64,000 bases of DNA from Gammaproteobacteria bacterium (GTDB lineage Bacteria; Pseudomonadota; Gammaproteobacteria; Steroidobacterales; SZUA-146): NCBI GenBank assembly GCA_045107075.1, contig JBGCFV010000047.1, forward strand, positions 17,351-81,350, read 5' to 3'. Positions 2,878 to 64,000 of the stretch are shown piece by piece; the first letter of the stretch is position 1, and every line of letters starts with the position of its first letter. The notes below the pieces were generated by a model. The model saw only the letters and a program-made list of their open reading frames with translations, did not search any database and was not told the DNA's origin. Both the position numbers and the translations under genes were made by a program.

Positions 2878-2904
2878 ACCAGTTTGCAGCCTGTAGGTGC
2901 CCTG

Positions 2905-3180: not shown

Positions 3181-3382
3181 TTTAATTTTTGATTATCGGC
3201 ATCGCCTTAATCATATCTCAACAACAATTAGTTCTCTAACCCGCTCCACACCTTGTGGGGTCCGTGCGTATCGCCTCCGAAGAAAATGTCCATCGTTGGA
3301 TTGGAACAAATGCTAGAGAAACCGACGGAACCTTCTCTGTTCCGGCTCAACCACTGAGTCAAAACAACCATGACTTCAAATA

Positions 3383-3874: not shown

Positions 3875-3993
3875 TGAATTACTCTGGAAGCTGAAGTTTA
3901 TTCTTGGTTTGCTCCAGCTCTGTTTTTAGAATTCTACGAGAATAGTCTATCTAACATTTCTGGCATTGATTAATTGCTGGCAAGGAGAACCGA

Positions 3994-4854: not shown

Positions 4855-4863
4855 CTTATCTTT

Positions 4864-5475: not shown

Positions 5476-5784
5476 GTGCGCTCATCCTTTTTCGATTTTT
5501 CTAACTCTGGCTACCCATAAGTGTACGGTAACCATTCCGGTTAGCCCAATGTAGGATTGCGCAAATAGAGCAAGGCCGGGCAACAGCATTGCGGAGGTGG
5601 CCCAACCGTACATATGATGATCCGCGGACCTGGTTTAATCGCCTAGAACTAGTGTTTAACCGTTTTCGGAAACTTGACCGTAAAGCGCATTCATTTTGAA
5701 GGCATTCACACCGATAAATACGTTTTGCACTTAGATCTGTGGAAATTCCTTTGGTAAGTCGTACGGCTATGTTTTGCCGCTCGA

Positions 5785-6381
5785 CTATCTAGAGCCGCGC
5801 AACAGTCGAATTCCGCTCAGGGCAGAAAGAAAGAGTAGCGCCGCACCGGGTAGAGGGACCTTCGTAGTTTCATATTGAATGCCGACTTGAACAAAATCTT
5901 GAAAGTTGTCTTGATTTGCTACGAACTCGTCATTTTGAATTAACACATGGAAGCCACCGCTCAGTAGCAACTCGTCCAGTAAAAACTGCTCCACCTCAAA
6001 TTCAAACGAGATCATGACATCGAGTAGCGGATCGGTGAACAGAAAATCAAAGTTAAGTAAATTGAGGCCTTCAATTGTGTCATCTCTTACGCCTATAGAG
6101 GTTAACTCAATCGTTCCGGGAATAGATTCAAAGCTTAAATTCGCTTTTTCCCCAAACGGCTGCGTGTAATCACCGCGTGCAACAAATGTGAGCAACGCAC
6201 CGCTTCCGTCACTCTCGGGCAGGTCTGAGAACTTGATATCAAAAAACTGGCCGTCCTCGTCTATGTTTTCTGTCGCCTCGTAAGAAAACGTTGACGCTTC
6301 AACCTTACCCGGAGCTACCCAGCAGATAGCGAGAGTAACGAGAACAAGAATGGATAGCGAAAGAGTGTATTTGTGAGTCAT
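5785..6381 (-). CDS. secreted protein with VPLPA/PEP-CTERM-type sorting tail
   Basis: N-terminal signal peptide. The C-terminus KVPLPGAALLFLSALSGIRLLRGSR* has the motif, hydrophobic helix and basic cluster that define exosortase substrates. Confidence 0.6.
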   Translation of the reverse strand: MTHKYTLSLSILVLVTLAICWVAPGKVEASTFSYEATENIDEDGQFFDIKFSDLPESDGSGALLTFVARGDYTQPFGEKANLSFESIPGTIELTSIGVRDDTIEGLNLLNFDFLFTDPLLDVMISFEFEVEQFLLDELLLSGGFHVLIQNDEFVANQDNFQDFVQVGIQYETTKVPLPGAALLFLSALSGIRLLRGSR

Positions 6382-38528: not shown

Positions 38529-41111
38529 ATGCTCTATACTTCGTTGCTAAATAATGGTTACTGGTATTTCGTGAAAAAACCGATCGACATTCTTTCAGCC
38601 GACAGGCTCGCAGGCCTTCTGTACGTGGCGCTTTTTGCGTTGGCCGCTCTGTGGTTGGCTCAGCCCGGTTTTGAACGACTTGAAACAGCTGGCTACGACA
38701 AAATGATGCAATCGGTCACCTTTACTCCTACCGATCGAATTGCCGTAATCGACATAGATGACAAGAGCATCGCTGAACTGGGCCGTATGCCATGGTCGCG
38801 TGATTTGTACGAACGCATGACGCAGCTGCTCGAAAGCGGCGGCGCTAAGGTTGTCACTTACGGACTGCTGTTCTCCGAGGCACAAGTCGACCCGGGTCGC
38901 GACACTCTGCTCGAAATTCAAGGCGAATTGACAAGACTGGCTCAGGCCGCCGCATCGGAAAACGCTGACATCGGTTCACGTGCCAATCAAATAGCCAATA
39001 GCGTCGAGGCCGGACTAAACGACCTCGACTACGACGCCCGACTCGCTGCCAGTTTCGGCTCATCCGGCAACGTTCTCATTCCAATGATGTTTGCTTTGGG
39101 CCAGCCGAGCGGCCGACCTGACGCCGAACTGCCCAGCTACATTGTGTCGATGGCGGCAATATCAGAGACACAGTTTGTCGGCATTCCGGCGAGCCAGGTG
39201 ACACTGCCAATTGAAAGTCTTGCGACGCGAGCACTGCGCATCGGCCACCTCAACCAGACCACCGACGCACACGACAGCGTGCTGCGTAAAGAGTCTCTGG
39301 TCGTCGACTATTACGGCGAAGCCTTTCCTTCGCTGGCGCTGGCAACAGCTGCCGCAGCACTTAATCTTGAACCTGAAGACATAGTCGCCACGTCCGAAGC
39401 TGTAATGATTGGACCGCGACGCATTGCGACCGACGGTCTCGGCCGGTTTAACCCTGTCTTTTATTCAGACGACAACAGTACGGCATTTCCAGTCGACTCA
39501 TTTACTGATGTGTTTGCGGCCAAAGTGCCAGCCGACAAGTACCGCGACAAAGTCGTTCTTATTGGCGCAAGTGCAGCGGGTGTAGGCAATCGCTTTGCTA
39601 CGCCTACCAATCCGGATCTGGCCCCGGCGATGGTGCTGGCCCACAACGTATCCAGCATTCTGCAAGGAGACAGCATTGCTCGTCCCGCCTGGGCAGTCCC
39701 TGTCGAAATGGGCATCTGCGTCCTGATCGGGCTTTACATTCTGGTGCTGCTACCTGGCATGCGCTCGCGGACCGCTTTGCTGACAACAAGTGCTGCAGCC
39801 ATTTTGTTGGTGGCCGTGGCCTTCGGCTTCTTTTCAACCTCACAAGTTTGGCTCAGACTGATTACACCTCTTCTGTTTTTACTCGGCGGACATTTGGTCA
39901 TGACGCTCAAACGCTTCGGTGTCGTTGAACGACTCCGAGCCAACTCTGATCTGGCCAGCGCCGAAAGCAATCGCATGCTGGGACTGGCGTTTCAAAGTCA
40001 GGGCCAGCTGGACATGGCCTTCGAGAAATTTCGCAAGTGTCCGCTCGACGACTCCATGATGGAGCCGATGTACGCTTTGGCTCTGGACTTTGAGCGTAAG
40101 CGACAGTTTAACAAGGCGGGCGCGATCTATTCATACATGGCCAAACACGACGCTAATTACCGCGACCTGACCAAGCGTATTCAACGCAATCAGTCGCTGG
40201 ATGAGACCACCATTTTAGGTCAAGGCAGTGGCGTCGGTGGTACTCGACTGTTGATTGACGAAGACGACAACGGATTGCAAAAGCCAATGCTGGGCCGTTA
40301 CATGGTCGAAAAAGAGATCGGCCGAGGCGCTATGGGCACGGTGTACCTTGGAAGAGACCCTAAAATTAACCGCATCGTGGCAATTAAAACTATCGCCCTA
40401 AGCGAAGAATTTGACGAGGACGATCTCGCCACAGCTCGAGAACGCTTCTTCCGTGAGGCCGAAACGGCGGGACGTTTAAACCATCCGGATATTGTCACCG
40501 TATTCGACGCCGGCGAGGAGCTTGACCTCGCCTATATCGCCATGGAATTTCTCAACGGCAAGGAACTTAGCGACTTTACCAACCAGGACACGCTGCTGCC
40601 GGTTAACACCGTGCTCAAAGTCGTCGCGCGGGTCGCCGAGGCGCTGTCCTACGCGCACGAGCAGGACGTCGTGCATCGTGATATAAAACCGGCGAACATC
40701 ATGTTTGAGCGCGATTCAGGCGATATGAAGATCACCGATTTTGGCATTGCACGCATTACCAATTCGTCGAAAACCAAAACCGGCATAGTGCTCGGGACAC
40801 CGTCTTACATGTCTCCTGAGCAATTGGCGGGTAAAACTGTGACCGGCAAGTCAGATTTATTCTCCCTAGCTGTTACTCTGTTCCAGTTATTGACTGGACA
40901 GTTGCCGTTTCGGGCTGACTCAATGGCAACGTTAATGTATAAAATCGCCAATGACGAGCACGCTCCACTACACTCAGTGCGACCGGAGCTGCCTCCTCAG
41001 TTGGCACACGTAATCGATACAGCACTATCTAAAGAACCAGCCGACCGATATGAGACCGGACTGGAAATGGCCCACGACATTCGCGAATGTCTTCAGCACC
41101 TGGCAGCGTAA
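38529..41111 (+). CDS. CHASE2 sensor domain Ser/Thr protein kinase
   Basis: 860 aa. N-terminal TM plus a periplasmic CHASE2-like domain (IAVIDIDDKSI..GRMPWSRD), then three TM helices and a short TPR-like linker. Kinase motifs GRGAMGTVY, VAIKTI, HRDIKPANIM, DFGIAR and GTPSYMSPEQ. Confidence 0.85.
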   Translation: MLYTSLLNNGYWYFVKKPIDILSADRLAGLLYVALFALAALWLAQPGFERLETAGYDKMMQSVTFTPTDRIAVIDIDDKSIAELGRMPWSRDLYERMTQLLESGGAKVVTYGLLFSEAQVDPGRDTLLEIQGELTRLAQAAASENADIGSRANQIANSVEAGLNDLDYDARLAASFGSSGNVLIPMMFALGQPSGRPDAELPSYIVSMAAISETQFVGIPASQVTLPIESLATRALRIGHLNQTTDAHDSVLRKESLVVDYYGEAFPSLALATAAAALNLEPEDIVATSEAVMIGPRRIATDGLGRFNPVFYSDDNSTAFPVDSFTDVFAAKVPADKYRDKVVLIGASAAGVGNRFATPTNPDLAPAMVLAHNVSSILQGDSIARPAWAVPVEMGICVLIGLYILVLLPGMRSRTALLTTSAAAILLVAVAFGFFSTSQVWLRLITPLLFLLGGHLVMTLKRFGVVERLRANSDLASAESNRMLGLAFQSQGQLDMAFEKFRKCPLDDSMMEPMYALALDFERKRQFNKAGAIYSYMAKHDANYRDLTKRIQRNQSLDETTILGQGSGVGGTRLLIDEDDNGLQKPMLGRYMVEKEIGRGAMGTVYLGRDPKINRIVAIKTIALSEEFDEDDLATARERFFREAETAGRLNHPDIVTVFDAGEELDLAYIAMEFLNGKELSDFTNQDTLLPVNTVLKVVARVAEALSYAHEQDVVHRDIKPANIMFERDSGDMKITDFGIARITNSSKTKTGIVLGTPSYMSPEQLAGKTVTGKSDLFSLAVTLFQLLTGQLPFRADSMATLMYKIANDEHAPLHSVRPELPPQLAHVIDTALSKEPADRYETGLEMAHDIRECLQHLAA

Positions 41112-41121
41112 AGCGTGAACA

Positions 41122-41946
41122 ATGAGTCTTAAAGGGAAAATTGAACACTACGCGGTAACCGATACCGGCATGGTCCGAGACCATAACGAGGACGCCGTAG
41201 GCGCTGATATGGACATTGGTCTGCTGGTGCTCGCCGACGGCATGGGTGGCTACAACGCAGGCGAAGTAGCCAGCGGCATAGCTGTGGGCACCACTGTCGA
41301 CATCATGTCCGATTTCGTCAAACGCGAGAAACGCGACGCGACGGACGAAGAGACCGGCCTTATGCGTCAGACGGTAGCCCTGAGAGACGCTGTGGTGAGA
41401 GCCAACAAAATTATCTACCAAACCTCGAAATCGAAGTCAGAATGCGAGGGAATGGGCACAACAATTGCCGCCGCTTTATTTTACAATAACCGGATTTCGA
41501 TTGCCCATGTTGGCGACTCTCGGGTGTATCGGCTGCGCAACGGCGAGTTTAGCCAGGTAACGAAAGACCATTCGCTGCTCCGAGAGCTGGTAGATCGCGG
41601 TTTTTATTCTCCTGAAGAGGCACAAAGATCACTAAATCGTAATTATGTGACACGTGCATTGGGGATTGAACCGAAGGTTGAGGTAGAACTGACAGAGGAG
41701 ACGGCGCTGCCCGATGATGTGTATGTTTTGTGTTCAGATGGCCTGACAGATATGGTCGAAGACGAGGATATTCATTTAACTATCAGCACGTTTAATGCTA
41801 ATCTTCACACGGTAGGTCAACAGTTGGTAAGACTGTCAAACGACAACGGCGGTAAGGACAATATATCCGTGGTCGTGGCCAAAGTCGTGAAGCCTTTTGG
41901 TGAAAGTAACAAATTGCTTAGCAGACTAAGCAATATCTTTAGTTAA
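41122..41946 (+). CDS. PP2C-family Ser/Thr phosphatase (Stp1-like)
   Basis: 274 aa with the motifs NEDA, LADGMGG, GTT, HVGDSR, SDGLTD and GGKDNISVVV. Confidence 0.9.
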   Translation: MSLKGKIEHYAVTDTGMVRDHNEDAVGADMDIGLLVLADGMGGYNAGEVASGIAVGTTVDIMSDFVKREKRDATDEETGLMRQTVALRDAVVRANKIIYQTSKSKSECEGMGTTIAAALFYNNRISIAHVGDSRVYRLRNGEFSQVTKDHSLLRELVDRGFYSPEEAQRSLNRNYVTRALGIEPKVEVELTEETALPDDVYVLCSDGLTDMVEDEDIHLTISTFNANLHTVGQQLVRLSNDNGGKDNISVVVAKVVKPFGESNKLLSRLSNIFS

Positions 41947-41965
41947 TATTTATTGAGAGCAACAC

Positions 41966-42757
41966 ATGGCACGCCTAGTACTGAGCTTAGACGGACAAGT
42001 TCTTGCAGAATACAATATGCAAAAAGAACGCTATACGGTGGGTCGCCTGCCGGATAACGATGTTCGTATAGACAACCCTGCCGTCAGTGGTCATCACTCG
42101 CTGGTCATCAATATTCTGAACGACTCGTTCCTGGAAGACTTGAACAGCACCAACGGCACTTATGTTAACGGCAAGCTCGTTAAGAAACATGCGTTGCAGC
42201 ACGGCGACGTGATCACTATTGGTCACCACCAGCTGCGCTTTGTCGACGACGACAAAGAAGACTCTGACGACGACGAATTCGAAAAAACCATGATTATTCG
42301 CCCCGGTTCCCAAACCGATGCGCCGAGCATGGAAAACGTCGAAGAAGCCGTGCGGGCTGCCGGTGCAGCCCCGGACGAAGGGCCTAGCGATCAACACCGC
42401 CTGCCCTCTTTCGGTTCGGCCGCTGTTGCAAGCCCGGCTGTTAAACCACACACAGAGACCATGGCCGGGACCGGCGCCAAGGTTCTTCCGAAGGCCAAAC
42501 TACAGGTCCTGAGCGGTGCGTTTGCCGGCAAAGAACTGGTTCTGACCAAAGCGCTAACTACGCTTGGCCGACCCGGTGTACAGGTTGCTGCAATTACCCG
42601 AAGAGCCGAAGGTTACTTTGTCGTCCACGTCGATGGCGGCCCTTCAGGCAACTACCCGATTGTTAACGGTAAACCAATTGGCCCTCAGGCACGACGACTG
42701 AACGACAACGACGTGATTGAGCTGGCTGGCGTCAAGATGGGATTTTTCGAAAGCTAG
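41966..42757 (+). CDS. FHA domain protein (N-terminal FHA, acidic linker, second FHA-like C-terminal domain)
   Basis: 263 aa. N-terminal FHA: YTVGRLPDNDVRIDNPAVSGHHSLV..NSTNGTYVNGK..GDVITIG. C-terminal degenerate copy: TTLGRPG..NGKPIG..NDVIELAG. Confidence 0.8.
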   Translation: MARLVLSLDGQVLAEYNMQKERYTVGRLPDNDVRIDNPAVSGHHSLVINILNDSFLEDLNSTNGTYVNGKLVKKHALQHGDVITIGHHQLRFVDDDKEDSDDDEFEKTMIIRPGSQTDAPSMENVEEAVRAAGAAPDEGPSDQHRLPSFGSAAVASPAVKPHTETMAGTGAKVLPKAKLQVLSGAFAGKELVLTKALTTLGRPGVQVAAITRRAEGYFVVHVDGGPSGNYPIVNGKPIGPQARRLNDNDVIELAGVKMGFFES

Positions 42758-46136: not shown

Positions 46137-48836
46137 CTACCGCGAAATTAACCGGTAAGCGGCCCAGTCTGCCTGTGGATGCGATTCGATTAACGCTATT
46201 TGTGCCAGCCGTAATGCATGCTCGGGCGCCTGACCACGGATCCAATGAGAGTAAAACTGCTCGATCACCCTATGCGCCATATCGTCACGAACCGGGCGTG
46301 AAGCCGCTAACACCTTCTGGCTTCCTGCCAGTAAAAACGCATTGGCCAGACTCATGCTTTGCGAGGCTGTGCTGGTGGCTTTGGCCGTTTCGCAACCCGA
46401 CAACACGACCAGAGGCGGTGAGTGTTCCAGCGTTAACACATCAGAAATTCCCAAGCCGGAATCTGACCCGAGTTTAAGCTCGCTTCCCCAACCGTATTCA
46501 CCGGCAAACCGTGCGTGCCCCGCAAAGTGAAAAAGATCGCTACGCTGTATGTTCTCTAGCACGCTGGAAAACTGAACCTGCTCGTCAACCAGCGTTTGAT
46601 AAGACCAGGCGAGAGAAGCGGTCAACGTATCTGCGACGTTATTTAGTTCACGACGTGCAGCGGCCAGGTCGCCGCCCGCATCGGCCACCAGTAGTGCGCG
46701 ATTACCTCGCGTTAAAGCGTTTCTTGAACTGGCAATATCCAGACCATAAACAACAGGAACCCGGGAAACCAATGGCTGACCTTTTACGCGAAGGGCATGC
46801 ACATCAATTTCGGCCATAGCGCCCGACACCAACATTCGCAACAACGGCGCCGCCGATATGTCTTCGAAGACGGTTTCAAGCAGACACTCCATTTGTTCAG
46901 ACAGGTCGGTGCGCAGACAGCTCGGCTGCGTAACCCGAAGCGTGGTGCCGTCGTGCGTGAAAAGAGCCCAGGACGTTGGCAATTTCTGAACCAGCACCAA
47001 CAGCTCATTTACTCGAGGAGGTAACAGCGACGGAGACTCAATCTCTCTAAACACATCTGCAGCACCATCTAAAATCTGTCGCAGGCGAGTCTTTCGTGTT
47101 GCGTTTTCACCGGCGAGCTCTACCAGTTCATCGGCCGGCAGCATCCACGCGGACTCCACGGCCACTTCCAACTCTTTACGCAAATCATGATACTCACCAA
47201 GCAGTTGCTCCCACTTCCGTTGAGCAGGCTGCGACAACTGCTCAACGCTGTGAGCTACATTCACGGTATTGAGTGCGCGTCTGCGGGCTTCGCGTGCGAG
47301 CGCAAATGCTTCGTCGTAGCGCTGCACATCTAATAGTAGAGCAATATGTTCATTGGTCACGTTTGAGCGTGCCGTTAGCAAAGCCTCCCTGCCTTGATCT
47401 ATCGGAATTGATGGCAAAACATCGAGCAGTAACCAGTCAGCCTCCATGTACGCGTTAAGCGCCGCCTCCCTATCGCCGGTCGCCGCATAAGTACGTGCGT
47501 GTCCTGCTAAAGCACGCCACTGGGCCTGATGAGAAAGCGTCGCTTTGGCGAGCAGCTGAAGCTCATCGTATTTTCTGTGGGCCAGCTCAAAGTCGCCACG
47601 GTCGAGTGCAATGCGAGCTTCGATGTCCAGTAGCCACAGCGCGCTACGCAGATGCATTGCGTTCGTGTCGCGGGCTTTTTCTATCCACCGCTGCGCACCA
47701 GAAAGATCGTTGGCGTGCCACCGCGCCAAGGCAAGATTGGTTCGGGTATTTATAACGACTGTTGGGCCACATTTCTTCTGAGCCAACTCATCTGCTTTGA
47801 CTAGAAGGTCGGTAGGATCCTCGGAACTCCTACCAGCCTCCAATAGCAGAAGAGCTGCCCAACCCATGTTGGTGAGCGCAAGCGAATGTTCACATGGACG
47901 TATATCGTCAGGCAGCGAACTCCAACGAGACAAATAGGCTAGTGCTTCCTGGCCACGCCCCACTCGCTGCAACTGTACGGCGAGTAACAGTTCGGCGTAC
48001 AACCGCTGCGCCGCCGTACCGGTTCGTTGCGCCTGCAAGGCGGCCTCGTTCAGCCGCGTCAGCGCTGTTCGAGTATTGCTGGTGTTGTAAGCCAGTAAAC
48101 CAAAAAAATAATTCAGGTTATACGCGCTGTCTGCATCGAAGAGCGCGGGTGCTACCGTGTCATTCAAGACCTCGCGTGCTCGCTTGAAATCGCCCTTACT
48201 CATCAGGGTGTAAACAATAACCGTTGACGTGCGCAAGGCATCAGAGTGTTTGCCAGCCTTCATGTCGGCCGCAACGGATTGCGACAGCAGCTCTTCGGCT
48301 TTAGCAATATGACCCAGTCGGCGTTGAGCCTGGCCTAGCAGTCGTAACGCGGCGCCTGCCCAGTGCGGATCAATTGACGACATCGAAGTGTTAAGCAGAA
48401 GAATAGACTCTTCAAGCTTCCCTTCCCGATTCAGTGTTCGGGCGGTTTCAAGCATCTTAGGCCGCGTATTGGACTCAAGTTTCAACGCTGCCGTGCGTAA
48501 ACCGTCGCTAAAACTCAGCGTTGAAACTCCTTTGGGAACGTCGAGTTTAAACCGGGTGCCCCCCAAAACTCTGAGCGTTGTAGCGTTTGATAGCGTAGAC
48601 AGACTCATCCTGTTGCCATCGAAGCCAAACGACACACTATCGCGCAGCCCATGCTCTACCCAGACCGTCAGTGTGCGGCTATCGTTGAGAGTACAGACGT
48701 TTTCCGCAGAAACCGAAGCGCAGCCACTGACCTCAACACGTAGCAGATTGTCGTCCGAAAAAGCCCACGGCATTGTTACAAGCCATAGACTCACTGCGAG
48801 TCTTCGGACTCCATTTTTTGTACGTAGATGACTCAT
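46137..48836 (-). CDS. exported TPR-CHAT domain protein (caspase-like protease fold)
   Basis: 899 aa. Signal-peptide-like N-terminus (RRLAVSLWLVTMPWAFSDD), a roughly 120-aa beta-rich region, then a long TPR array. The C-terminal CHAT domain has the dyad context FHFAGHARF (His codon 46515-46517) and LVVLSGCETAK (Cys codon 46392-46394). Confidence 0.8.
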   Translation of the reverse strand: MSHLRTKNGVRRLAVSLWLVTMPWAFSDDNLLRVEVSGCASVSAENVCTLNDSRTLTVWVEHGLRDSVSFGFDGNRMSLSTLSNATTLRVLGGTRFKLDVPKGVSTLSFSDGLRTAALKLESNTRPKMLETARTLNREGKLEESILLLNTSMSSIDPHWAGAALRLLGQAQRRLGHIAKAEELLSQSVAADMKAGKHSDALRTSTVIVYTLMSKGDFKRAREVLNDTVAPALFDADSAYNLNYFFGLLAYNTSNTRTALTRLNEAALQAQRTGTAAQRLYAELLLAVQLQRVGRGQEALAYLSRWSSLPDDIRPCEHSLALTNMGWAALLLLEAGRSSEDPTDLLVKADELAQKKCGPTVVINTRTNLALARWHANDLSGAQRWIEKARDTNAMHLRSALWLLDIEARIALDRGDFELAHRKYDELQLLAKATLSHQAQWRALAGHARTYAATGDREAALNAYMEADWLLLDVLPSIPIDQGREALLTARSNVTNEHIALLLDVQRYDEAFALAREARRRALNTVNVAHSVEQLSQPAQRKWEQLLGEYHDLRKELEVAVESAWMLPADELVELAGENATRKTRLRQILDGAADVFREIESPSLLPPRVNELLVLVQKLPTSWALFTHDGTTLRVTQPSCLRTDLSEQMECLLETVFEDISAAPLLRMLVSGAMAEIDVHALRVKGQPLVSRVPVVYGLDIASSRNALTRGNRALLVADAGGDLAAARRELNNVADTLTASLAWSYQTLVDEQVQFSSVLENIQRSDLFHFAGHARFAGEYGWGSELKLGSDSGLGISDVLTLEHSPPLVVLSGCETAKATSTASQSMSLANAFLLAGSQKVLAASRPVRDDMAHRVIEQFYSHWIRGQAPEHALRLAQIALIESHPQADWAAYRLISR

Positions 48837-50746: not shown

Positions 50747-52150
50747 CTACGGTGAGCACAGGTTTGGTTCAGCAGCCGGACCCGGGTTACCGAAAAAATA
50801 GGTCCGCAAGAAGAAGAGATCAAGCAGATTAACAACGCCATCTGAATTGAAATCGGCCGGAGCGTTATTCGTGAAGAAAGCGTTCCTGAATAGTGCCAGG
50901 TCAGAGAAGCTGACTTCACAGTCGTTGTCTAAATCGGTGTCACACCGGTTACCAATACCGTCTCCATCTGCATCAATCTGGTTCGGGTTGTCGACTAAAA
51001 TGCAGTTGTCGATGTTATCCGGCACACCGTCATTGTCAGTATCTTGTTGCTGAGGTGCAGCCACCGCAATCGCGTCGATATTGTCGAAAGCGTTGGCCGG
51101 CCCGTCAAGAACCACAAAACTATTTCCTGTTAAGAACGACCCGTAGAGCGTTGACGGCACCAGTCCACCTGATTCGTCAATGGTCGACACAGGATTATTA
51201 GGCTGCACGGTAAACAGCATGGCTAACGCTGGTCCCTGCGGTGTTGGTAACCAAACGAACTCAAAGCCGTCGATGTTAACGTCTGCGGGCAAACCAAAAT
51301 GCAGTGGCCGCAACGCAACTGATGGCGCTGCTGGACCTGTGAACTGATAAATATTGCCGGGGTTCAAGCCCATACGACCTTCGGTATCCACGCTAAAATA
51401 GTGCACATCGCAACCGTTAACAGGGTTACGGTCAAGCGCATCCACGTCGTCGTCGTTGATGAGACTTCCAAACGTAGGATTAGGTGACAAATCGGTATGA
51501 ACCTCAGATTCATCGCGCAACGGCCCCATTCCGAGGAGCGCTGCGGGAAAGCCCCCGCTCACGTCCAGGTTCACGCCGAATACTTCGTCCTGACCGGTAG
51601 TTGTACCATACAAAAAACCGAGTGCAGAAAGACCTTCAACCGGTATTCGCGGTGCGCCGGGAAAACCCCATCCGGCCGTGGAGTCGTCGCTGTACGACAG
51701 CGCGACGGTGCCAAACGGATACACGCAATCAATCGGCGCATTAGCTCTGAGCAGCGGTTGCGGCAACGGTGCATCAGGTGAAACATCGAGCTGATTAATA
51801 CGTGCCGAAATGGCATCGTAAGCATCGATATCGAAGAAGTTTGTGTACAGACCCGGCGTTCCAAGTGGCGCTGCCGAAGCCAGAACACCCTGTACGGGGG
51901 CGGGGTCAACGCCGCCAAACAGATCCGCGTCATCGAGTCTCGGTGCAATAGCCATAAGACTTCCTGCCACCTGACTGGAAAAATACACGTCGCCAGGATC
52001 GGCAAATTCTCCCGGATCGTTTGCCGGATCAGATATTTCCGTGTCTGACCCAATGTCCAGCGAGAACACTAATTCAGCGTCCGCGGTTGTCGGGTAAAGA
52101 GTGAGCGCCAGCACAACGGCTGCGCCTAAAGCGTTGAGTGTTCGGTCCAT
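50747..52150 (-). CDS. secreted protein of unknown function with TSP3/dockerin-like cassette
   Basis: 467 aa with a signal peptide (..[10 protein letters not shown]). The C-terminus is [53 protein letters not shown]. A hairpin plus T-tract (minus strand, about 50655-50705) separates it from the sigma gene. Confidence 0.6.
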   Translation of the reverse strand: [467 protein letters not shown]

Positions 52151-52350: not shown

Positions 52351-53808
52351 TCAAACCGCAGTTGGTCGCTTGCTCGCGCTCACGGCGTTATGGGCCAGCT
52401 TGAGATCACGGACGAAGAGCTCGTATTCGAGCTGGGCGTTGGGTGAATTGCCAAGGCGCAACAAGTAAGACGGATGCACGGTGACGATGATTTTGCGACC
52501 GTTATCGTCTTGAAGTAATCGCCCCCTAACGTCTTTGATTCTACAGGGGTGGCCCAGCAACGAGTGCGCAGCCGTCGCGCCCAGCGCAAGCGTAATATCA
52601 GGATCTATATGACTGCGTTCCTGAGTTAGCCACCAGCGGCAGTGTTCGATTTCAGAGCTGTCCGGTCGTACATGAAGTCGCTGCCGACCGCGTGCGCGAT
52701 ATTTGAAATGCTTGACGGCGTTGGTTAGATAAATATCATCTCGCTCAATATTAGCGGCATTAAAGGCGCGATTTAAAACTACACCCGCTGGACCGACAAA
52801 AGGCTTGCCCACAACGTCTTCCTGATCTCCCGGCTGCTCGCCCACAACCATAAGACGCGCGTTATCAGGACCTGCACCAACCACAGCTTGCGTTGCGCAT
52901 TGATGTAGCGAGCAACGTTCACAGGCCCTGATTTTGACAACGAGCTCTTGCAGGCTGCCGACGGGCTCTGGCTCTGGTGCCGTTCGTCGCTGCTGCGAAA
53001 CGAGGCGCTTTGCTTTTACGACAGAGGGTCGGGTGCCGGTTGGCGCTGCAAGTTGATATCGATGAGCATCACGTACCAGGTCGCCGATCAATCGACTCTC
53101 TGGCAAATTATGCCAATACTTCTTGGGCATCTCGGAACCCATCGCCTTCACTTTTAGTCGCGCAGGATTAAAAATGCTCGCATAGTATGTTCGCCACCAG
53201 GACTCAAGCGCGTCTGCGTCGGGACAGTCGGCGCGTGTGGCACCGTCGCCAAAACGTAGCGAGCACTTGTCCCAGTGCACACTCCGTGAGGGCGTCACAA
53301 TAGACCAGTGCATGCCGGCAAATCGTTTTTTGAAAAAAGGCGCTGTGAATTCGACTATGTGGTGATCAGGCTCAAACCACGCTATGAACACCTCACGCTG
53401 ACCGTCCGGCACCTGACGAAACCGCACAAACGCTTTCATCTTGTGTGCATCCCGACGAACAGCTTTTGCCATACGATGGAGCTGCCAGACATCGTCATCG
53501 CTTGCGTCGTCGAGAAGTCGCGGCGCGGACTGCAGTCTCCATAGTACTCGATACAGAAGTGCAAAACGCGCACCGTCACTGTGACATATAACTTGCTCTG
53601 CCAACGGTTGAAAAGCTCGAGGAACGCGCACTGAAACAGGCGTAACCGCCCCTTTCGTGAGCGGCTCTGCAAACAGGTCGCCATTTTCGAAAGGCAGCCG
53701 AAAGCTAACCTGGTCAGGCGAAATGCCCTGATTCAGCAGCTCACGCGCCGCGTCGCGCCAAGCCCGATAGTCGGCTGGTGACTCCAGCTCTACCTCAACG
53801 CCAGACAT
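52351..53808 (-). CDS. fusion of DUF4130/TIGR03915-type DNA-metabolism domain with a family-4/UdgX-like uracil-DNA glycosylase domain
   Basis: 485 aa. The C-terminal half has the Fe-S ligands CERCSLHQC, motif A GEQPGDQED and motif B HPSYLLR. The loop HFKYRARGRQRLHVRP has its His codon at 52672-52674. The start overlaps the stop of the radical SAM gene by 1 nt. Confidence 0.8.
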   Translation of the reverse strand: MSGVEVELESPADYRAWRDAARELLNQGISPDQVSFRLPFENGDLFAEPLTKGAVTPVSVRVPRAFQPLAEQVICHSDGARFALLYRVLWRLQSAPRLLDDASDDDVWQLHRMAKAVRRDAHKMKAFVRFRQVPDGQREVFIAWFEPDHHIVEFTAPFFKKRFAGMHWSIVTPSRSVHWDKCSLRFGDGATRADCPDADALESWWRTYYASIFNPARLKVKAMGSEMPKKYWHNLPESRLIGDLVRDAHRYQLAAPTGTRPSVVKAKRLVSQQRRTAPEPEPVGSLQELVVKIRACERCSLHQCATQAVVGAGPDNARLMVVGEQPGDQEDVVGKPFVGPAGVVLNRAFNAANIERDDIYLTNAVKHFKYRARGRQRLHVRPDSSEIEHCRWWLTQERSHIDPDITLALGATAAHSLLGHPCRIKDVRGRLLQDDNGRKIIVTVHPSYLLRLGNSPNAQLEYELFVRDLKLAHNAVSASKRPTAV

Positions 53809-55064
53809 TACTCAAACAGACTACGCTGCACCGGAGGTGGGGCTAACTGCTGACGTAACGTGGCCTGCTCAAGTAGCTTCGTAGGACGCCAATCGGGGGT
53901 GACAACGAACGGTCGCAATCGATGAACAGACGTGGTTAAGCGCGCAAGATCGGTAAGTCGCAGCGCATGAACGCGCCTGGCCTTGAGCACGGCTGCTACG
54001 CCGCGAGTACCGAGCCCCGGAATGCGCAATAACGTTTCTTTGGGTGCCTTGTTGATATCGACCGGGAAGTCCTGTCGATTTCTTAACGCCCAGGCAAGCT
54101 TTGGGTCAATGGCTAAATCCAGCATACCCTCGCGCCCGCCAGACATGATTTCATCGAGATCAAACTGATAAAAACGCAATAGCCAGTCCGCCTGATAGAG
54201 CCGATGCTCTCGCTGCAACGGTGGTGGTTCCGGCGGCAGCTGCACGCTCGGATGAGGGGTCGGACTAAAGGCGCTGTAGTAAACACGCTTTAATTTGTAA
54301 CTCGAATACAAAGTTGTACTCGTGGCCAGAACTTTACGGTCGTCCGAATCGTCGGCGCCGATAATCATTTGGGTGCTCTGGCCGGTAGCCATAAAACCTT
54401 TCGGATTGCGGTGCCGACTACGCTCTGCCTTTTTCTCATCAATTCTCAGTCTGACGTCGGCCATTGCCGTTCGAATACGCCCGGCATCTTTTTCAGGCGC
54501 CAGATTTCGCAAACTGACACGGCTTGGCAGCTCAACGTTAATGGACAGACGGTCTGCGTAACGACCGGCCAAGTCGATTAATTCAGGCGCCGCATCCGGA
54601 ATCGTTTTTATATGGATATAGCCTTGAAACTGATGTGTGTCCCGCAGCTGCCGCGCCACCTCAACCATTTGCTGCATGGTGTAGTCAGGGCTCTTAATGA
54701 TGCCGGAAGACAGAAACAAACCCTCAATGTAATTGCGCTTATAAAAGTCGAGCGTAAGGTTGACCAGCTCATCAACGTTAAATCGGGCGCGACGTACGTC
54801 ACTTGAAATCCGGTTAACGCAGTACAGGCAGTCGTACTGACAGTAGTTAGTCAGCAGCACCTTCAAAAGAGAAATACAGCGACCATCGGGCGTATAGGAA
54901 TGGCAGATGCCGGTCCCGCCCGTCGAGCCGACGCCACCGGTTCGGGTGGAGTCTTTTCGCCCGGCTGCACTGGACGCACAAGAGGCGTCGTATTTCGCAG
55001 CATCGGCCAAGATAGCTAGTTTGTTTACGGTTTTCAGGTGAGTCATCGCGCTACGGTCCGGCAA
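53808..55064 (-). CDS. putative DNA modification/repair radical SAM protein (TIGR03916-like)
   Basis: 418 aa. CxxxCxxC radical-SAM cluster (CQYDCLYC) and a C-terminal helix-hairpin-helix (LLRIPGLGTRGVAAVLKARR). It is paired with the DUF4130-UDG gene, as described for this family. The start is TTG at 55064 or ATG at 55046. Confidence 0.85.
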   Translation of the reverse strand: MPDRSAMTHLKTVNKLAILADAAKYDASCASSAAGRKDSTRTGGVGSTGGTGICHSYTPDGRCISLLKVLLTNYCQYDCLYCVNRISSDVRRARFNVDELVNLTLDFYKRNYIEGLFLSSGIIKSPDYTMQQMVEVARQLRDTHQFQGYIHIKTIPDAAPELIDLAGRYADRLSINVELPSRVSLRNLAPEKDAGRIRTAMADVRLRIDEKKAERSRHRNPKGFMATGQSTQMIIGADDSDDRKVLATSTTLYSSYKLKRVYYSAFSPTPHPSVQLPPEPPPLQREHRLYQADWLLRFYQFDLDEIMSGGREGMLDLAIDPKLAWALRNRQDFPVDINKAPKETLLRIPGLGTRGVAAVLKARRVHALRLTDLARLTTSVHRLRPFVVTPDWRPTKLLEQATLRQQLAPPPVQRSLFE

Positions 55065-55077
55065 TTTAGACTCAATA

Positions 55078-55097
55078 TACTGTGTTTATATACAGTA
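55078..55097. promoter_or_regulatory. LexA (SOS) box upstream of the radical SAM / UDG operon
   Basis: TACTGTGTTTATATACAGTA fits the gammaproteobacterial consensus TACTGT-N8-ACAGTA in both conserved arms. It lies 14 nt upstream of the TTG start. Confidence 0.75.
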
Positions 55098-55136
55098 TTT
55101 GTCAAGCGCTTAATCGAACCATTTGCTCGTTACTCC

Positions 55137-57374
55137 TTACACCACGCCCTCTGCGATCTCGCTCAGGTGGTCCATCTCGCGTTGGCGAGGACGCTGTTTT
55201 TCAGAGCGCTTGTCGTTGATCAACAACAACAGCTGAGCGGCTGCCTCGGCATCACAAAGCGCGCGGTGATGAGTCTCGAGCGATATGCCGTAGGCCTTGG
55301 TCAGGGCGGCAAGACTGTATGAGGCGTGCCCCGGATAGTGACGGCGCATACCCGCAACCGTGCAAAGACGAGCCATCTTGAAACGACGGCCTATGCGACG
55401 AAACTCTCTTCCAATAAATCCGTAGTCAAACGCAACGTTGTGGGCAACGAAAATAGCGTTTCCAAGAAAGTCAGCCAAGGCGTCAGCGATTTGCTCAAAG
55501 CGCGGAGCGCCGTCCACCATTGTTTGGGATATACCCGTTAAACGAGTGATCGCCGGCGGAACTGAGCGACCGGGGTTTAACAACGTTGAGAATTGGTCGA
55601 CTATTTTGCCGTTGACCACCTTCACTGCGCCAATTTCAGTTACGCGATGCTGGTCGCCTCGCCCTCCCGTCGTTTCAACATCCACGACAACATACGCCTG
55701 CCTGGGATCGAGCGTCCATTGGGTCGCTACAACTTCCGCCCGAAAACCAGCGTTGGTTAACTGCTGTAGTTTGGCGAGCTGATGGCGACGCAAACTGTCA
55801 CCTTCCGATTTGATTTCGACGAACTTTACCCCGTGATCATCGACTAACAGCAGGTCCGGATAGCCGGAACGCATCAACGGATAGTTCTTGCACATAAGCC
55901 GCAATATGTTTTCAACAGCCTGCAATGGCGCTTCTTCAACGAGCACAAAAAGCGCATCAAGCGTCGACTGCCGCCAACGAAACACTCCGTTTCTTGTACC
56001 GAATTTTTCGGTGGCCACTTTTAGTAACGTAAGCTTTAAACGCGCCCGGCTGTTAACTTGCGCCAAACGCTTATCGACGGCCGAAGTATACGAGGTGTAA
56101 AACAAGCCCGTTGCTAAACTCTGTGGCAACGTATCAAACGGAGAGTGGATCTCTGCCGTCCGATTTGAAAACAACATGTCCCAAAACACCATGCCAAACA
56201 ACATTCTCCAGAGCGCGTTTTCACAGTGATAAGCCCGCATACCTTTTTCGGCGAACCAGGCAACCGCGGCTTTTTCGGGAGAGCCGACGAACTGTTCGTC
56301 AATTTCAATCGTGGAGGCCGCCTTTAATACATCGGTTGTGGCCAGCGTTCTTTTGCCTTTAAATGTTCGGGCATACAGGTCTCGAGCAAACAGTGCTTCT
56401 TCGTCGTTTCGGGGCGTTTCCATGCAGCTCAAGAGACACGTACTGGCGCTGTCTCTGTCGCCCAATTTGAGCATCAGCCGAATAGCTCGCTCTGTGCAGC
56501 GGGTCGACTCGGCGTAGCGGTAGAGCTCGATTGCCCGTTTTAAGTCTTTTTGCTTTTCTTGAATAGAACCTAGTCGCCATGCGAGCCTGTCGCGTAGCTT
56601 CGCCGCGCCCGCTGAGACGGGTTCGGGCCATTGTCTTGCTTCACGAACCAAAATGTGGATGTCGCAGGACGATGGTGACTTCTGACGAACTTTTAACAAA
56701 CGTGACGCAAAGTAAAAGTGCTCTCTTGCGCCCTCTTCATCTTGAAATCTTGGTTCGTAGTCAGTTTTCAGGTCCGCAGGCTGAACAAGCCCCAAGTCGC
56801 GCAAGGCGAAGCTATCCATACCGTCCCGGGTTTTGCCAAAATACAAGAACATCAAATATTGCACTGTTGACGTTTTGCGCTGGACTATTAACCTTGACGG
56901 ATTGCACTGGCTCAGAAATGACTCTGGTTCACACGTTGCCAATGCCAGTTCAACAAGCTCGTTTTTCAGAATCGTTTTCGGCAGCCCCGCCGTCTTTAGA
57001 GACAGTATTCTGTGAATTTCGCTCTTGGTGAGCAATTTGAGCAGCTCGGAAAAGTGATGAGGTCCGGGTTCCGAAATAAAGCCGGCGCTTCGCAAGCAAG
57101 TCAACGGCTCGTTCAGCTTGCCAATTTCCGGATAGTTCAGCTTGGCACACGAGAACACGGTGCCCTTACGGTTTACAAGGCGGACATAAAGCGCTTGGGC
57201 CAATTCATCGAGCGCTTGAAACGAAGATAGGAAAGCTTGGTCAGCTACGCCTAAAACGTGTTCGTAGTGTTCCTCTACGAACTCGAGCATTTCGACAAAA
57301 TGGTCTCGGTAATAAAAAGGCTCTAGCTGCTTCCCGCGAGAGTATCGTGGTTTTAAGGACTGATTGAAGTTCAT
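55137..57374 (-). CDS. FAN1-like VRR-NUC nuclease fused to a DEDDh (DnaQ/epsilon-type) 3'-5' exonuclease
   Basis: 745 aa. The helical N-terminal roughly 490 aa are followed by a VRR-NUC PD-(D/E)xK core, GYPDLLLVDDHGVKFVEIKSEGDSLRRHQ (about 55705-55900). Exonuclease motifs follow (about 55137-55700): VVVDVETTG (ExoI), FVAHNVAFDYGF (ExoII), HRALCDAEAAA (ExoIII, DEDDh). Confidence 0.8.
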   Translation of the reverse strand: MNFNQSLKPRYSRGKQLEPFYYRDHFVEMLEFVEEHYEHVLGVADQAFLSSFQALDELAQALYVRLVNRKGTVFSCAKLNYPEIGKLNEPLTCLRSAGFISEPGPHHFSELLKLLTKSEIHRILSLKTAGLPKTILKNELVELALATCEPESFLSQCNPSRLIVQRKTSTVQYLMFLYFGKTRDGMDSFALRDLGLVQPADLKTDYEPRFQDEEGAREHFYFASRLLKVRQKSPSSCDIHILVREARQWPEPVSAGAAKLRDRLAWRLGSIQEKQKDLKRAIELYRYAESTRCTERAIRLMLKLGDRDSASTCLLSCMETPRNDEEALFARDLYARTFKGKRTLATTDVLKAASTIEIDEQFVGSPEKAAVAWFAEKGMRAYHCENALWRMLFGMVFWDMLFSNRTAEIHSPFDTLPQSLATGLFYTSYTSAVDKRLAQVNSRARLKLTLLKVATEKFGTRNGVFRWRQSTLDALFVLVEEAPLQAVENILRLMCKNYPLMRSGYPDLLLVDDHGVKFVEIKSEGDSLRRHQLAKLQQLTNAGFRAEVVATQWTLDPRQAYVVVDVETTGGRGDQHRVTEIGAVKVVNGKIVDQFSTLLNPGRSVPPAITRLTGISQTMVDGAPRFEQIADALADFLGNAIFVAHNVAFDYGFIGREFRRIGRRFKMARLCTVAGMRRHYPGHASYSLAALTKAYGISLETHHRALCDAEAAAQLLLLINDKRSEKQRPRQREMDHLSEIAEGVV

Positions 57375-57400
57375 CTGATGAGGCGCTCATAACGAACCTG

Positions 57401-57420
57401 TACTGTATATAAATACAGTA
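57401..57420. promoter_or_regulatory. LexA (SOS) box upstream of the VRR-NUC/exonuclease gene
   Basis: TACTGTATATAAATACAGTA is a near-perfect palindromic SOS box, 27 nt upstream of the ATG at 57374. Confidence 0.8.
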
Positions 57421-57429
57421 TCGCATGCA

Positions 57430-58178
57430 ATAGCAATGAATCTCAACAAATTTTTGAATGTGCGCGCTTTCGGCTGACTTGAACTCGGAAAACCTCTCGC
57501 ACTGTGCCGCCGCATCAACTCCGGCCATTTCCATCACGCTTGACCCGGCGGTCAAAGGTGTTTGGCGTGCGTGAACCAATACGTTTGCCGCATCAAATTT
57601 GCGGGCAACCAGCTGGGCTAACTTCGCCGCTTCGTAATCCAACTCGGCAAAGGCACCGTCTTTTTTCTTGCTTAGACCCAAGGCTGTAACGACCTTGTTC
57701 AACTCCAGGTGTTCGTCCTGAACAAACCACACGTGAACCGGTTAGCAGCGAACCAGCTCCCAGTCCGTATTGCTGTCAAGCCCGGCAGGTAGCTGTGTTC
57801 ACGCGACTGCTTAACGACCAGATCAGGTCCGGCGTCTTCAATTTTACGCAATATCGCTTCCGTTCTTGAGGAGTCCCAGCGCACGTCATGAAGGACTGTC
57901 ACACCCTTTGAGGCGAGCTCAAGAGCCATGTCGGCCATGCGTTTTCGGTTGCGGTTCATGACCTGCTTTTTGTCTTCTTCGAATTTGCTGTACGCTGAAA
58001 ACAAGTGCTGTTCCGATGACGTATCGTGCACGACGTGAAAGAGTTCTATCTCACACCCCATTGTCTTGGCCAAATCGAGCGCTCTCTTGATAGCGGGCGA
58101 ATTGAGCGGGGCTTCAAACGTGATCTGGTCGGCATTCAGAATGACCAGCACGCGTTCAAACAATGTCTGTTTAGACAA
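57430..58178 (-). pseudogene. tandem-domain universal stress protein (UspE-like), frameshifted, nonsense-mutated and 3'-truncated
   Basis: USP domain 1 is intact in ORF 57699-58178 up to ..VVKQSREHS. The conserved continuation LDSNTDWELVRC-[TAA at 57742-57744]-PVHVWFVQDE is in another frame, with a 1-nt shift near 57780-57790. Domain 2 (ORF 57241-57732) runs only about 95 aa (..SAHIQKFVEIH) before reading into the LexA box. The last roughly 70 aa of a USP fold are missing. Confidence 0.6.
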
Positions 58179-58694: not shown

Positions 58695-59351
58695 CTATCC
58701 GGTAGAGAGATAATCCGATGCCATAACGTGCTGGACCAGATCTTCTACGGTGAGCACGGGTATATCGTGCTTAAGGCCGTACTTCATGACTTCCGGCATG
58801 CGCGCCATGCTGCCGTCTTCGTTGCTTAATTCGCACAGCACACCAAACGGGGACAAGCCAGCTAAACGCATGAGCGTTACGGTGCCCTCCGTATGCCCGC
58901 GACGCTCAAGCAACCCACCCGGAGCCGCACGAAGCGGGAAGACGTGACCGGGTCTCAGCAAGTCGTCCGGTGCACAAGCAGGCGCACTGGCCACTTTGAC
59001 CGTCTGCACTCGATCGGCCGCGGACACGCCCGTCGTAACTCCAACACGCGCTTCGATTGAAACAGTGAACGCGGTGCCGTTTCGACTGGAATTCGTCGTA
59101 ACCATAGGCGGCAGTTCCAAACGCTTAACAGCGGCGTCTTCCATACACAGACAGACAATACCGCTGCAGTCTCGAATCAGCCTCGCCATTTGAGGAGTAG
59201 TGAGATGTTCTGCCGAGAAAATCAGATCGCCTTCGTTCTCGCGATCCTGATCGTCCAGCAGCAACACGCCCGAACCCCGACGCAAAGATGCCAAGGCATT
59301 CGCCACGCGTTCGTCAGGCGTGCCAAAGTCGTTTATAAGTAAGTCTTTCAT
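58695..59351 (-). CDS. ribB: 3,4-dihydroxy-2-butanone-4-phosphate synthase
   Basis: 218 aa from [12 protein letters not shown]. It has the RibB blocks [24 protein letters not shown] and VLCEL. The upstream extension in the track ORF covers the riboswitch expression platform. Confidence 0.9.
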
Positions 59352-59482
59352 GATTATTCCCAAGCATGTAGAGCCAACAGCGGCTGATTCTTGGGGGTGA
59401 CGATTTACGCAGCACTGCATAGGCGAATAAACGCCCAACACAGACTGGTACGGTTCGTGCCGATGGCACAAACTGCACGCTA

Positions 59483-59632
59483 CTCTCTCATCCGGACTTT
59501 AACCGTCGGCTCTGGAATCACACCAGATCTGCTGACCCTGCCACAAGGTGCGGCAGGCGCTCGCGGGCTTTCAAACGCTCTTTTGAGCGATGATTACCGC
59601 CGGTAGGGAGTTCCACCCTGCCCCGAGTACGT
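59483..59632 (-). promoter_or_regulatory. FMN riboswitch (RFN element) controlling ribB
   Basis: The minus strand reads ..CTCGGGGCAGGGTGGAACTCCCTACCGGCGGTAA..GAAAGCCCGCGAGCGCC..GATCTGGTGTGATTCCAGAGCCGACGGTTAAAGTCCGGATGAGAGAG. This matches the conserved RFN blocks (GGGCGGGGTGAAATTCCCCACCGGCGGTAA, AGCCCGCGAGC, GGTGAAATTCCAAAGCCGACAGT..AGTCTGGATG). Confidence 0.85.
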
Positions 59633-59953
59633 GTGCAGGATACGGCTGCTTCGCTGCAAGGTCAATTGCCAGAATGCCAAGTGGCTTAGCCCCCCGAATA
59701 AGCCGGGAAACTCAACTGGCTCTTGGGGTATGCGCATCAAGAGGCCTTTGCTTCGCCGGCCCTTGGCCGACCGCACACCGGCAGCCTGCACGACTCATCT
59801 TGCCGCGATGAAGTACGCGACAACCTGTCTGAAATAAGACGCCCATCGCGGCTGGAAGCCGTTCCTACCTACCTCCGGCGCAAATATCCAGACGGGCACG
59901 GGCCAAGTGCGCATTGCAGCAGGAATTTGAACCCCGAAAGTCTTTAATTCGCC

Positions 59954-63044: not shown

Positions 63045-64000
63045 CTAACGCATATCGCTAAATCCAAACAGAGCCATAATATCGGCTACTGAACCATAAG
63101 CCGATGCACTGGCACCCGAGTAATGAACGGCCAAAAGCAGCATCCAAAACGTTATTAGCACCTTCTCATAGGTTCGCAACTCATACCGATAGGACGTGTA
63201 CGGTAGTAGCGTTGCGGTTAGTTTACTGAGCTGATTACGACTGTTTCCAATGAGTCTATAAAGCGGTTTGCCCCAGGAGCCCATACCAATCCAGGAGAGC
63301 CCATAGCCCAGTGGAAACCAGACGGGTGAAGCACGCATGAGCTTGAGTAACGCGGCCCAGCACAGTTCATGCTGACCGTCTCCATCAAAAACCACCCAAC
63401 TATCGTTGTCGCGTAGCAGTTTGTGAGCAGCCTCATCGGTTTGCGCGGCGGCAATACGGCAGCGGCCGAGCATAAAAAACGACGCGAAAATAAAACAAAT
63501 TTTTCGACAGAATCCGCAGGGTTGATCGTAGTAAATTCGAATGTCATGACGCTTGGAAAACACTGACCGTTCGCTAATCCAGTCGAACACGCTGCCCGGC
63601 ACCATTAGTGTTGCAAGCACTAATATCAGACCGTACTCGAATGCCTCAACGCCCGTCTGGGCTCTTATCGCAAAAGCTACCGCGGCTACAAACAGTGTGA
63701 TGAATATCAGACGCAGTGCGCCCAGTGTCGGTAACAGCTGCGCCGCAATAATCGAAAGCCCTGCAACAACAGGCCAACGCGCCTGGCCGACAGATAACGA
63801 CGCGGCAATAACTCCGGCAACGCAACCAAACATAATTAACAACACTGCGACCGTGCCGACCGAAGCATACGAATTGTCGATGACCGGGTAAGCGCCGTCC
63901 TCCAAAGCACCCCGGTCCCTCGCGTCGTCCAAAGAGAAAAAGCGAGCAGTTGGCAAAAAGACGCACAGTAACAGCACCGCACAAATCAACGCATGGTAAC
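63045..64000 (-). CDS. membrane protein with DCC1-like thiol-disulfide oxidoreductase (DUF393) domain; 5' end probably outside window
   Basis: IRIYYDQPCGFCRKICF is the DCC-family CxxC block, preceded by several TM helices. The frame stays open upstream of the TTG at 63989 to the window edge, so the gene is probably truncated by the window. Confidence 0.5.
   Translation of the reverse strand, partial: YHALICAVLLLCVFLPTARFFSLDDARDRGALEDGAYPVIDNSYASVGTVAVLLIMFGCVAGVIAASLSVGQARWPVVAGLSIIAAQLLPTLGALRLIFITLFVAAVAFAIRAQTGVEAFEYGLILVLATLMVPGSVFDWISERSVFSKRHDIRIYYDQPCGFCRKICFIFASFFMLGRCRIAAAQTDEAAHKLLRDNDSWVVFDGDGQHELCWAALLKLMRASPVWFPLGYGLSWIGMGSWGKPLYRLIGNSRNQLSKLTATLLPYTSYRYELRTYEKVLITFWMLLLAVHYSGASASAYGSVADIMALFGFSDMR

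Follow-up and report, generated by a model that had tools for sequence, protein, structure and literature searches.

Do two strong LexA boxes lying close together on one strand mark a dedicated SOS island, or do they belong to separate units that happen to be neighbors? The question arises from a 64-kb stretch of DNA from a gammaproteobacterium of the Steroidobacterales (assembly GCA_045107075.1, contig JBGCFV010000047.1), in which one box precedes a two-gene operon for a radical SAM (rSAM) protein and a fusion of DUF4130 to a UdgX-type uracil-DNA glycosylase (UDG), here called unit 1, and the other precedes a gene for a fusion of the nuclease FAN1 to a DEDDh exonuclease of the DnaQ type, here called unit 2. 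A first-pass annotation had read these genes as a compact damage-inducible island. Our analysis bears out one half of that interpretation and not the other: LexA-type control is likely, but the two units are never linked elsewhere, so that a dedicated island is not supported. We consider it likely that these are two independent LexA-repressed units, arranged head to tail on the minus strand and juxtaposed by a local rearrangement. Throughout, the window is the full 64-kb stretch and all coordinates are window positions.

LexA sites, promoters and genes of the two units

As a gammaproteobacterial SOS box we accepted a 16-bp CTGT-N8-ACAG palindrome with an AT-rich spacer that lies near the 20-bp LexA consensus TACTGTATATATATACAGTA, against which sites were scored. 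Both boxes are of this kind, at precisely the positions first proposed for them, and no other CTGT-N8-ACAG match occurs in the 64 kb. Shuffled windows contained a mean of 0.68 such palindromes, and two or more sites occurred in 15 of 100 shuffles. When sites within three mismatches of the consensus are counted, boxes 1 and 2 are again the only ones in the window, and none of the 100 dinucleotide-preserving shuffles gave any. Each box is located in a short noncoding stretch directly 5' of a minus-strand gene. The spacings differ from those given originally. Box 1 is 31 nucleotides (nt) from the rSAM gene and not 14 nt, given that the start is most likely the ATG at 55046 and not the TTG at 55064, because alignment pairs the N-terminal residues MTHLKTVNKL with the MPHL.. 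starts seen in relatives. For box 2, the distance to the ATG at 57374 of the FAN1-exonuclease gene is 26 nt instead of 27 nt.

Both sites are high-quality boxes of the gammaproteobacterial type, and they overlie promoter-like elements in front of DNA-processing genes. On the gene strand, the sequence 5' of rSAM reads TTGACA-aa-TACTGTATATAAACACAGTA-tatt, in which the -35 hexamer is perfect. When the window is aligned with four Woeseiaceae-type relatives, the core made up of TTGACA, box and CAGTAT does not vary. In front of the FAN1-exonuclease gene, a consensus scan places a -10 element, GATACT, that overlaps box 2. The predicted geometry of the boxes relative to these promoters is the classical one for LexA repression (Table 1). 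The stop codon of the FAN1-exonuclease gene is separated from the rSAM -35 hexamer by 31 nt with no detected terminator; read-through from the FAN1-exonuclease promoter (P_FAN) into the rSAM operon is therefore possible, and may add to expression of that operon. The two boxes (55077-55097 and 57401-57421) are 95% complementary to one another over 21 nt; they are near-identical but inverted relative to their genes, which may be coincidence between two sites that are both near consensus, or may hint at a common origin.

The rSAM protein scores far above the curated cut-off of its family, contains the CxxxCxxC motif and is encoded next to a TIGR03915 partner gene; at its C-terminus there is a weak helix-hairpin-helix match. 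The rSAM stop and the DUF4130-UdgX start overlap by 1 nt (TAATG), which suggests that the two genes are translationally coupled. The UdgX domain of the second protein reaches 273 bits with TIGR03914 (cut-off 190) and displays the motifs of that family, with GEQPG at 323, the R-loop histidine His379 and HPS at 445.

For the unit 2 protein, Pfam detects FAN1_HTH (4e-24), VRR_NUC (9e-14) and RNase_T (2e-37), and TIGR00573 assigns the exonuclease domain with 114 bits against a cut-off of 71.5. Residues 18-556 fall into one alignment with FAN1 of Pseudomonas aeruginosa (PDB 4r89, E=7e-31) and are thus collinear with it. Residues D507, E520 and K522 of the PD-(D/E)XK site in the VRR-NUC domain, as well as D565, E567, D650, H703 and D708 of the DEDDh site, are invariant in 18 aligned fusion proteins. 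An AlphaFold model (predicted local distance difference test score 80.7) matches the P. aeruginosa protein (PaFAN1) with a Foldseek E value of 1e-21, and the exonuclease domain of the model matches those of DinG and the Pol III epsilon subunit. This architecture is recurrent, with at least 346 clusters at 90% identity, of which the 120 listed all contain the three domains, and approximately 100 full-length representatives at 50% identity. Its only name in databases is "exonuclease domain-containing protein". The nearest relatives are metagenome-assembled genomes of Woeseiaceae, with 58% identity for the fusion protein and 76% for rSAM. In two of these nearest relatives, an AlkZ-like gene (PF06224) is located on the opposite strand approximately 3.6 kb from the FAN1-exonuclease gene (L086, 1315-2418; L087, 55-1137); AlkZ and YcaQ, the glycosylases that act on interstrand cross-links, belong to PF06224.

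Table 1. Features of the window, with the two candidate SOS units listed first
Feature	Position	Strand	Description
LexA box 1, TACTGTGTTTATATACAGTA	55078-55097		2 mismatches to consensus; 31 nt 5' of rSAM ATG
LexA box 2, TACTGTATATAAATACAGTA	57401-57420		1 mismatch to consensus; 26 nt 5' of FAN1-exonuclease ATG
Predicted rSAM operon promoter	55077-55105	-	-35 TTGACA, 55105-55100; box 1 in spacer; -10 CAGTAT, 55082-55077
FAN1-exonuclease promoter-like site	57417-57446	-	-35 TTGAGA, 57446-57441; 18-nt spacer; TG-extended -10 GATACT, 57422-57417
rSAM gene (TIGR03916)	53808-55046	-	545 bits, cut-off 343.5; C69-x3-C73-x2-C76
DUF4130-UdgX fusion gene, 485 aa	52351-53808	-	TIGR03915/DUF4130, aa 11-237; UdgX-family UDG, aa 241-471
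FAN1-exonuclease fusion gene, 745 aa	55137-57374	-	FAN1_HTH, helical/TPR middle, VRR-NUC, C-terminal DEDDh DnaQ-type exonuclease, aa 560-725
Decayed uspE-type tandem universal stress protein gene	57421-58178	-	Frameshift, in-frame stop; lacks about the last third of profile (positions 198-313)
radA/sms	37060-38412	-	Zinc ribbon, KaiC-like ATPase, Lon/ChlI-like domain
FMN riboswitch (RF00050)	59475-59634	-	107.5 bits; directly 5' of ribB
ribB (DHBP synthase)	58695-59471
Signaling cluster	32556-35255, 38529-42757, 46137-48836		Ser/Thr kinase with TPR, CHASE2 kinase, PP2C phosphatase, FHA protein
Dockerin-domain proteins	29895-31757, 50747-52150

LexA motifs at the two promoters in other genomes

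A site of the box 1 type is retained in relatives of unit 1. In Woeseiaceae contigs whose rSAM proteins are 74-76% identical to that of the window, the orthologous promoter carries tandem perfect CTGT-N8-ACAG boxes, for example TACTGTATATCTTGACAGTAACTGTATAAATAGACAGTA in locus L083. The window has one box where these relatives have two, and the alignment opens a gap of 15 columns at the position of the distal box. A metagenome scan gave 80 further loci, and exact motif matches within 250 nt upstream of rSAM were scored at the 84 scorable loci. CTGT-N8-ACAG was present at 31 of these, the alphaproteobacterial LexA repeat GAAC-N7-GAAC at 24 and the Gram-positive type GAAC-N4-GTTC at six; 22 loci had no exact match and one had too little upstream sequence. 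A LexA motif appropriate to the clade was therefore found 5' of rSAM at 61 of the 84 loci. Across all 170 loci that were fetched, an exact CTGT-N8-ACAG occurred in 39, and in 31 of the 39 it was at the rSAM promoter position. On an 810-kb metagenomic contig (L157), lexA itself lies directly 5' of the rSAM-DUF4130 pair, with its stop overlapping the rSAM start, and a convergent gene for a DnaQ-exonuclease/GIY-YIG (Cho-like) protein follows the pair (1881-4656 and 4663-6231).

Unit 1 had been described as an uncommon DNA-processing unit, but as an SOS gene set it is not uncommon. SOS regulation of the COG4277-COG1573 operon has been published for Verrucomicrobia, Alphaproteobacteria and Bacteroidetes (PMC8565304 and its references 7 and 65), and the LexA regulons of Gram-positive bacteria and Balneolaeota repeatedly include radical SAM genes (PMC7739468, PMC9380542). 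A heterodimer of rSAM and DUF4130 that acts on nucleic acid is predicted in a 2026 preprint (bioRxiv 10.64898/2026.08.19.745780). From its gene content and promoter, we regard unit 1 as the copy in this lineage of a widely conserved SOS operon type. A 20-mer identical to box 1, TACTGTGTTTATATACAGTA, was also seen approximately 3 nt before the rSAM ATG at 11 loci of a marine lineage whose rSAM proteins share only 58% identity with that of the window. Because the marine copy is oppositely oriented relative to the gene, the match probably reflects convergence on a strong site.

For unit 2, a scan of GTDB species representatives yielded 80 full-length fusion loci. Of these, 32 are of alphaproteobacterial type, and at 30 of the 32 GAAC-N7-GAAC or GTTC-N7-GTTC lies between -160 and +30 of the start; Bradyrhizobium, Asticcacaulis, Hellea, Algimonas and Hyphomonadaceae are represented. 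The density of the repeat is 5.1 sites per kb at the start compared with 0.03 per kb over the remainder of these loci, a difference of approximately 170-fold. The upstream neighbors of these genes vary in size and orientation, indicating that the LexA site belongs to the fusion gene. When one gene family is preceded by different LexA motifs in two classes, this is the standard comparative signature of SOS regulation, and SOS control of the FAN1-exonuclease fusion looks real by this measure. The Bdellovibrio-type motif TTAC-N3-GTAA was not found upstream of the Bdellovibrionota orthologues. The literature that we searched contains no report linking FAN1 or VRR-NUC to LexA, although the gene could have been listed previously as an "exonuclease". 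Unit 2 is probably a new member of the SOS regulon, under control that is patchy across the family. A broader proposal is more tentative, and we hold it at a little under even weight: that the FAN1-DnaQ fusion is a previously unrecognized, recurrent member of SOS regulons, a LexA-controlled cross-link or flap nuclease whose box is near-universal in Alphaproteobacteria and was gained independently in this gammaproteobacterium. A bolder extension is that here it may be co-transcribed with rSAM/DUF4130-UdgX in order to clear UdgX-type DNA-protein adducts or abasic-site cross-links.

A different element, TTTGCTACATTG, is conserved 5' of Woeseiaceae FAN1-exonuclease genes, at 11 loci; in many cases a GTG start follows it after 6-8 nt. 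The element resembles an extended -10 (TGnTAnnnT) with -13C, sigma-S-like, that would drive leaderless mRNAs. We considered TTTGCTACATTG as an alternative LexA site and rejected this, as it is nonpalindromic and fits an extended -10.

Origin of the adjacency and alternative readings

A multi-gene SOS island should show recurrent linkage, and neither survey revealed any. By tblastn, no rSAM or UdgX gene was located within 6 kb of the fusion gene at any of the 80 fusion loci, and no FAN1 gene occurred within 2.5 kb of rSAM at any of the 84 rSAM loci, at which L157 contributes only its unrelated DnaQ/GIY-YIG gene. The idea of a dedicated compact module is not supported by these counts, and we interpret the two-unit "island" as a chance juxtaposition in this one genome. 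The borders of unit 2 are informative in this regard. As the first-pass annotation had recognized, the upstream boundary is a truncated pseudogene, which we identify as a decayed uspE-type gene. Once its frame is spliced, it covers positions 4-197 of the 313 in the UspE profile with 88 bits, compared with 53 bits for the annotated 159-aa open reading frame (ORF), and the open frame continues to approximately 57425, at the FAN1-exonuclease promoter. NCBI annotation calls the first 159 aa an intact universal stress protein; a word-indexed homologue search with this ORF returned only the self match. At the other border, the stop of the fusion gene is situated exactly where relatives have the distal LexA box of the rSAM promoter. 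The fusion gene looks as if it were wedged between two scars, the truncated uspE and the lost distal box, and the simplest reading is that a local rearrangement or insertion placed two separately LexA-controlled units side by side.

Several observations weigh against the proposal that both units are LexA repressed. No E. coli-type box was found within 400 nt upstream, with one core mismatch allowed, at any of the 38 gammaproteobacterial fusion loci with upstream sequence (Woeseiaceae, Halieaceae, Congregibacter and Aliidiomarina), nor a credible one anywhere in the same 38 loci. The box is also absent from the five nearest homologues, which are 54-58% identical. Box 2 thus has no support from phylogenetic footprints in its own class, and appears to be specific to this lineage among Gammaproteobacteria. 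Furthermore, the promoter hexamers at both units are consensus matches only, and promoter-like sites are not enriched in the region (four, against 3.4 expected from shuffles). Likewise, the motif specificity of the organism's own LexA is deduced from the rSAM promoters of its relatives, which use CTGT-N8-ACAG at the orthologous position. Box 1 could be the only working operator, with box 2 a fortuitous or relic palindrome, for instance one that arrived with inserted DNA, and the FAN1-exonuclease gene constitutive, as its Woeseiaceae orthologues appear to be, many of them with TTTGCTACATTG instead of a box. We think this unlikely. Of the two sites, box 2 fits the consensus better, with a single mismatch and a quality that the shuffles never reached even at three mismatches, and it is positioned close to the ATG over the sole promoter-like element in approximately 50 nt. 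In addition, the alphaproteobacterial orthologues are almost always LexA-boxed, making SOS control a recurrent property of the fusion family. Conservation at orthologous promoters differs between the two boxes, the box 1 site being kept in relatives, while the box 2 site has no counterpart at the 38 gammaproteobacterial loci or in the five nearest homologues and is matched instead by the alphaproteobacterial motif.

The opposite possibility is that the three genes are co-adapted, with FAN1-exonuclease, rSAM and DUF4130-UdgX serving one pathway, such as the removal of UdgX-DNA adducts or abasic-site cross-links, and kept together as a module. Their shared direction, the action of all three products on DNA, the short interval without a detected terminator between unit 2 and the unit 1 promoter, and a strong box at each promoter, the two being largely complementary, would all suit such an arrangement. 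Yet the adjacency is seen in this genome only, each unit has its own LexA site in other genomes and the junctions resemble scars of rearrangement, all of which make a preserved module improbable. Far more remote is a mobile element or anti-phage defense locus with nucleases under an SOS-responsive repressor of phage type. DEDDh exonuclease domains are known from defense and CRISPR-associated proteins, one flank is a pseudogene, and the 5' half of the fusion gene shows a mild dip in G+C content (0.49-0.51 against about 0.53-0.56), but PADLOC returned only generic DEDDh matches and left the FAN1, rSAM and UdgX parts unmatched. The region also contains no integrase, transposase or tRNA gene, no convincing direct repeats or scars of transposition flank the fusion gene, and the fusion family is chromosomal in many genomes with varied neighbors. 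An Rfam scan detected nothing in the region of the two units.

Proposed mechanism, genomic setting and known systems

On the preferred reading of two independent LexA-repressed units, LexA dimers would occupy both predicted boxes in undamaged cells and block RNA polymerase. At the rSAM promoter (P_rSAM), LexA should exclude the polymerase because the box fills the spacer between the perfect -35 and the -10, and at P_FAN the box would cover the -10 and the start region. Upon DNA damage, filaments of RecA on single-stranded DNA would trigger LexA self-cleavage and both units would be derepressed. FAN1 unhooks interstrand cross-links and acts both as a 5'-flap endonuclease and as a 5'-3' exonuclease. 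In the fusion enzyme, the VRR-NUC site would be predicted to cut 5' flaps or cross-linked junctions as PaFAN1 does, and the DEDDh site may trim, resect or proofread the 3' end, in parallel with Cho-like fusions and DinG. P_rSAM would drive the translationally coupled rSAM and DUF4130-UdgX genes, and the UdgX-type domain might capture uracil or abasic sites and so tether an rSAM/DUF4130 complex to lesions. The event that created the present order would have been a local rearrangement or insertion that truncated uspE and removed the distal LexA box of the rSAM promoter.

Interstrand cross-link repair in bacteria is usually ascribed to nucleotide excision repair together with recombination. A LexA-boxed fusion bears on what bacterial FAN1 homologues do and how they are regulated, and the analysis offers a clear hypothesis, namely a dedicated SOS-induced cross-link or flap nuclease. 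A predicted LexA-controlled FAN1-exonuclease in two proteobacterial classes provides testable systems in cultured Bradyrhizobium and Asticcacaulis. The rSAM/DUF4130/UdgX operon is among the most widespread SOS units whose chemistry remains to be defined, and the data for unit 1 extend it to Gammaproteobacteria with a canonical box. None of this challenges the known logic of SOS regulation; the locus represents ordinary SOS regulation with one probable new regulon member.

Pfam scans of ORFs of at least 180 aa, except 63045-63989, detected no recA, lexA, umuDC or imuAB/dnaE2, as had been noted before. The sole other DNA-repair gene in the window is radA/sms, which has no LexA box. Elsewhere there is a signaling cluster, followed by a gene for a CHAT-domain protein and, downstream, an ECF-sigma-like pair, and two dockerin-domain proteins are encoded. 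Upstream of ribB, the start of the listed long ORF takes in the flavin mononucleotide (FMN) riboswitch.

Among known systems, unit 1 most resembles the COG4277-COG1573 operon (PMC8565304), with which it shares the same two gene families, their order, the overlap of their frames and a promoter with a LexA operator, and the window genes score far above the NCBIfam cut-offs. Unlike the reported operons, this copy is found in a Woeseiaceae-like gammaproteobacterium and has an E. coli-type box; the reported operons occur with or without a UDG domain, whereas here a UDG part of the UdgX type is joined to DUF4130. That domain aligns with UdgX of M. smegmatis (PDB 6ajo, 6ail) at E=1e-49. GEQPG, the R-loop histidine (RQRLH here, KRRIH there) and HPS are common to both, and His379 is in register with 6ajo, but the mycobacterial UdgX is a stand-alone protein of 209 aa and the window domain is attached to DUF4130, its gene being co-translated with that of rSAM.

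The fusion protein of unit 2 has its PD-(D/E)XK residues in common with P. aeruginosa FAN1 (PA1865; PDB 4r89, 5y7q) and human FAN1. It differs from both in the extra C-terminal DEDDh exonuclease, and like other bacterial FAN1 proteins it lacks a UBZ domain. UV-C and ciprofloxacin induce PA1865 through a regulator that is not known, reportedly outside the LexA, AlpR and PrtR regulons (PMC12796719), in contrast to the LexA-boxed gene described here. The closest parallels in design are SOS-linked fusions in which a DNA-processing enzyme of the damage response is likewise joined to a 3'-5' exonuclease of the Pol III epsilon type, namely the GIY-YIG proteins of the Cho/UvrC-like kind that carry an epsilon-like domain (PMC1839093) and DinG forms whose N-terminal domain is DnaQ (PDB 8zef). 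The window exonuclease domain most closely resembles that of DinG and that of PolC, but its partner is FAN1/VRR-NUC and the exonuclease is at the C-terminus.

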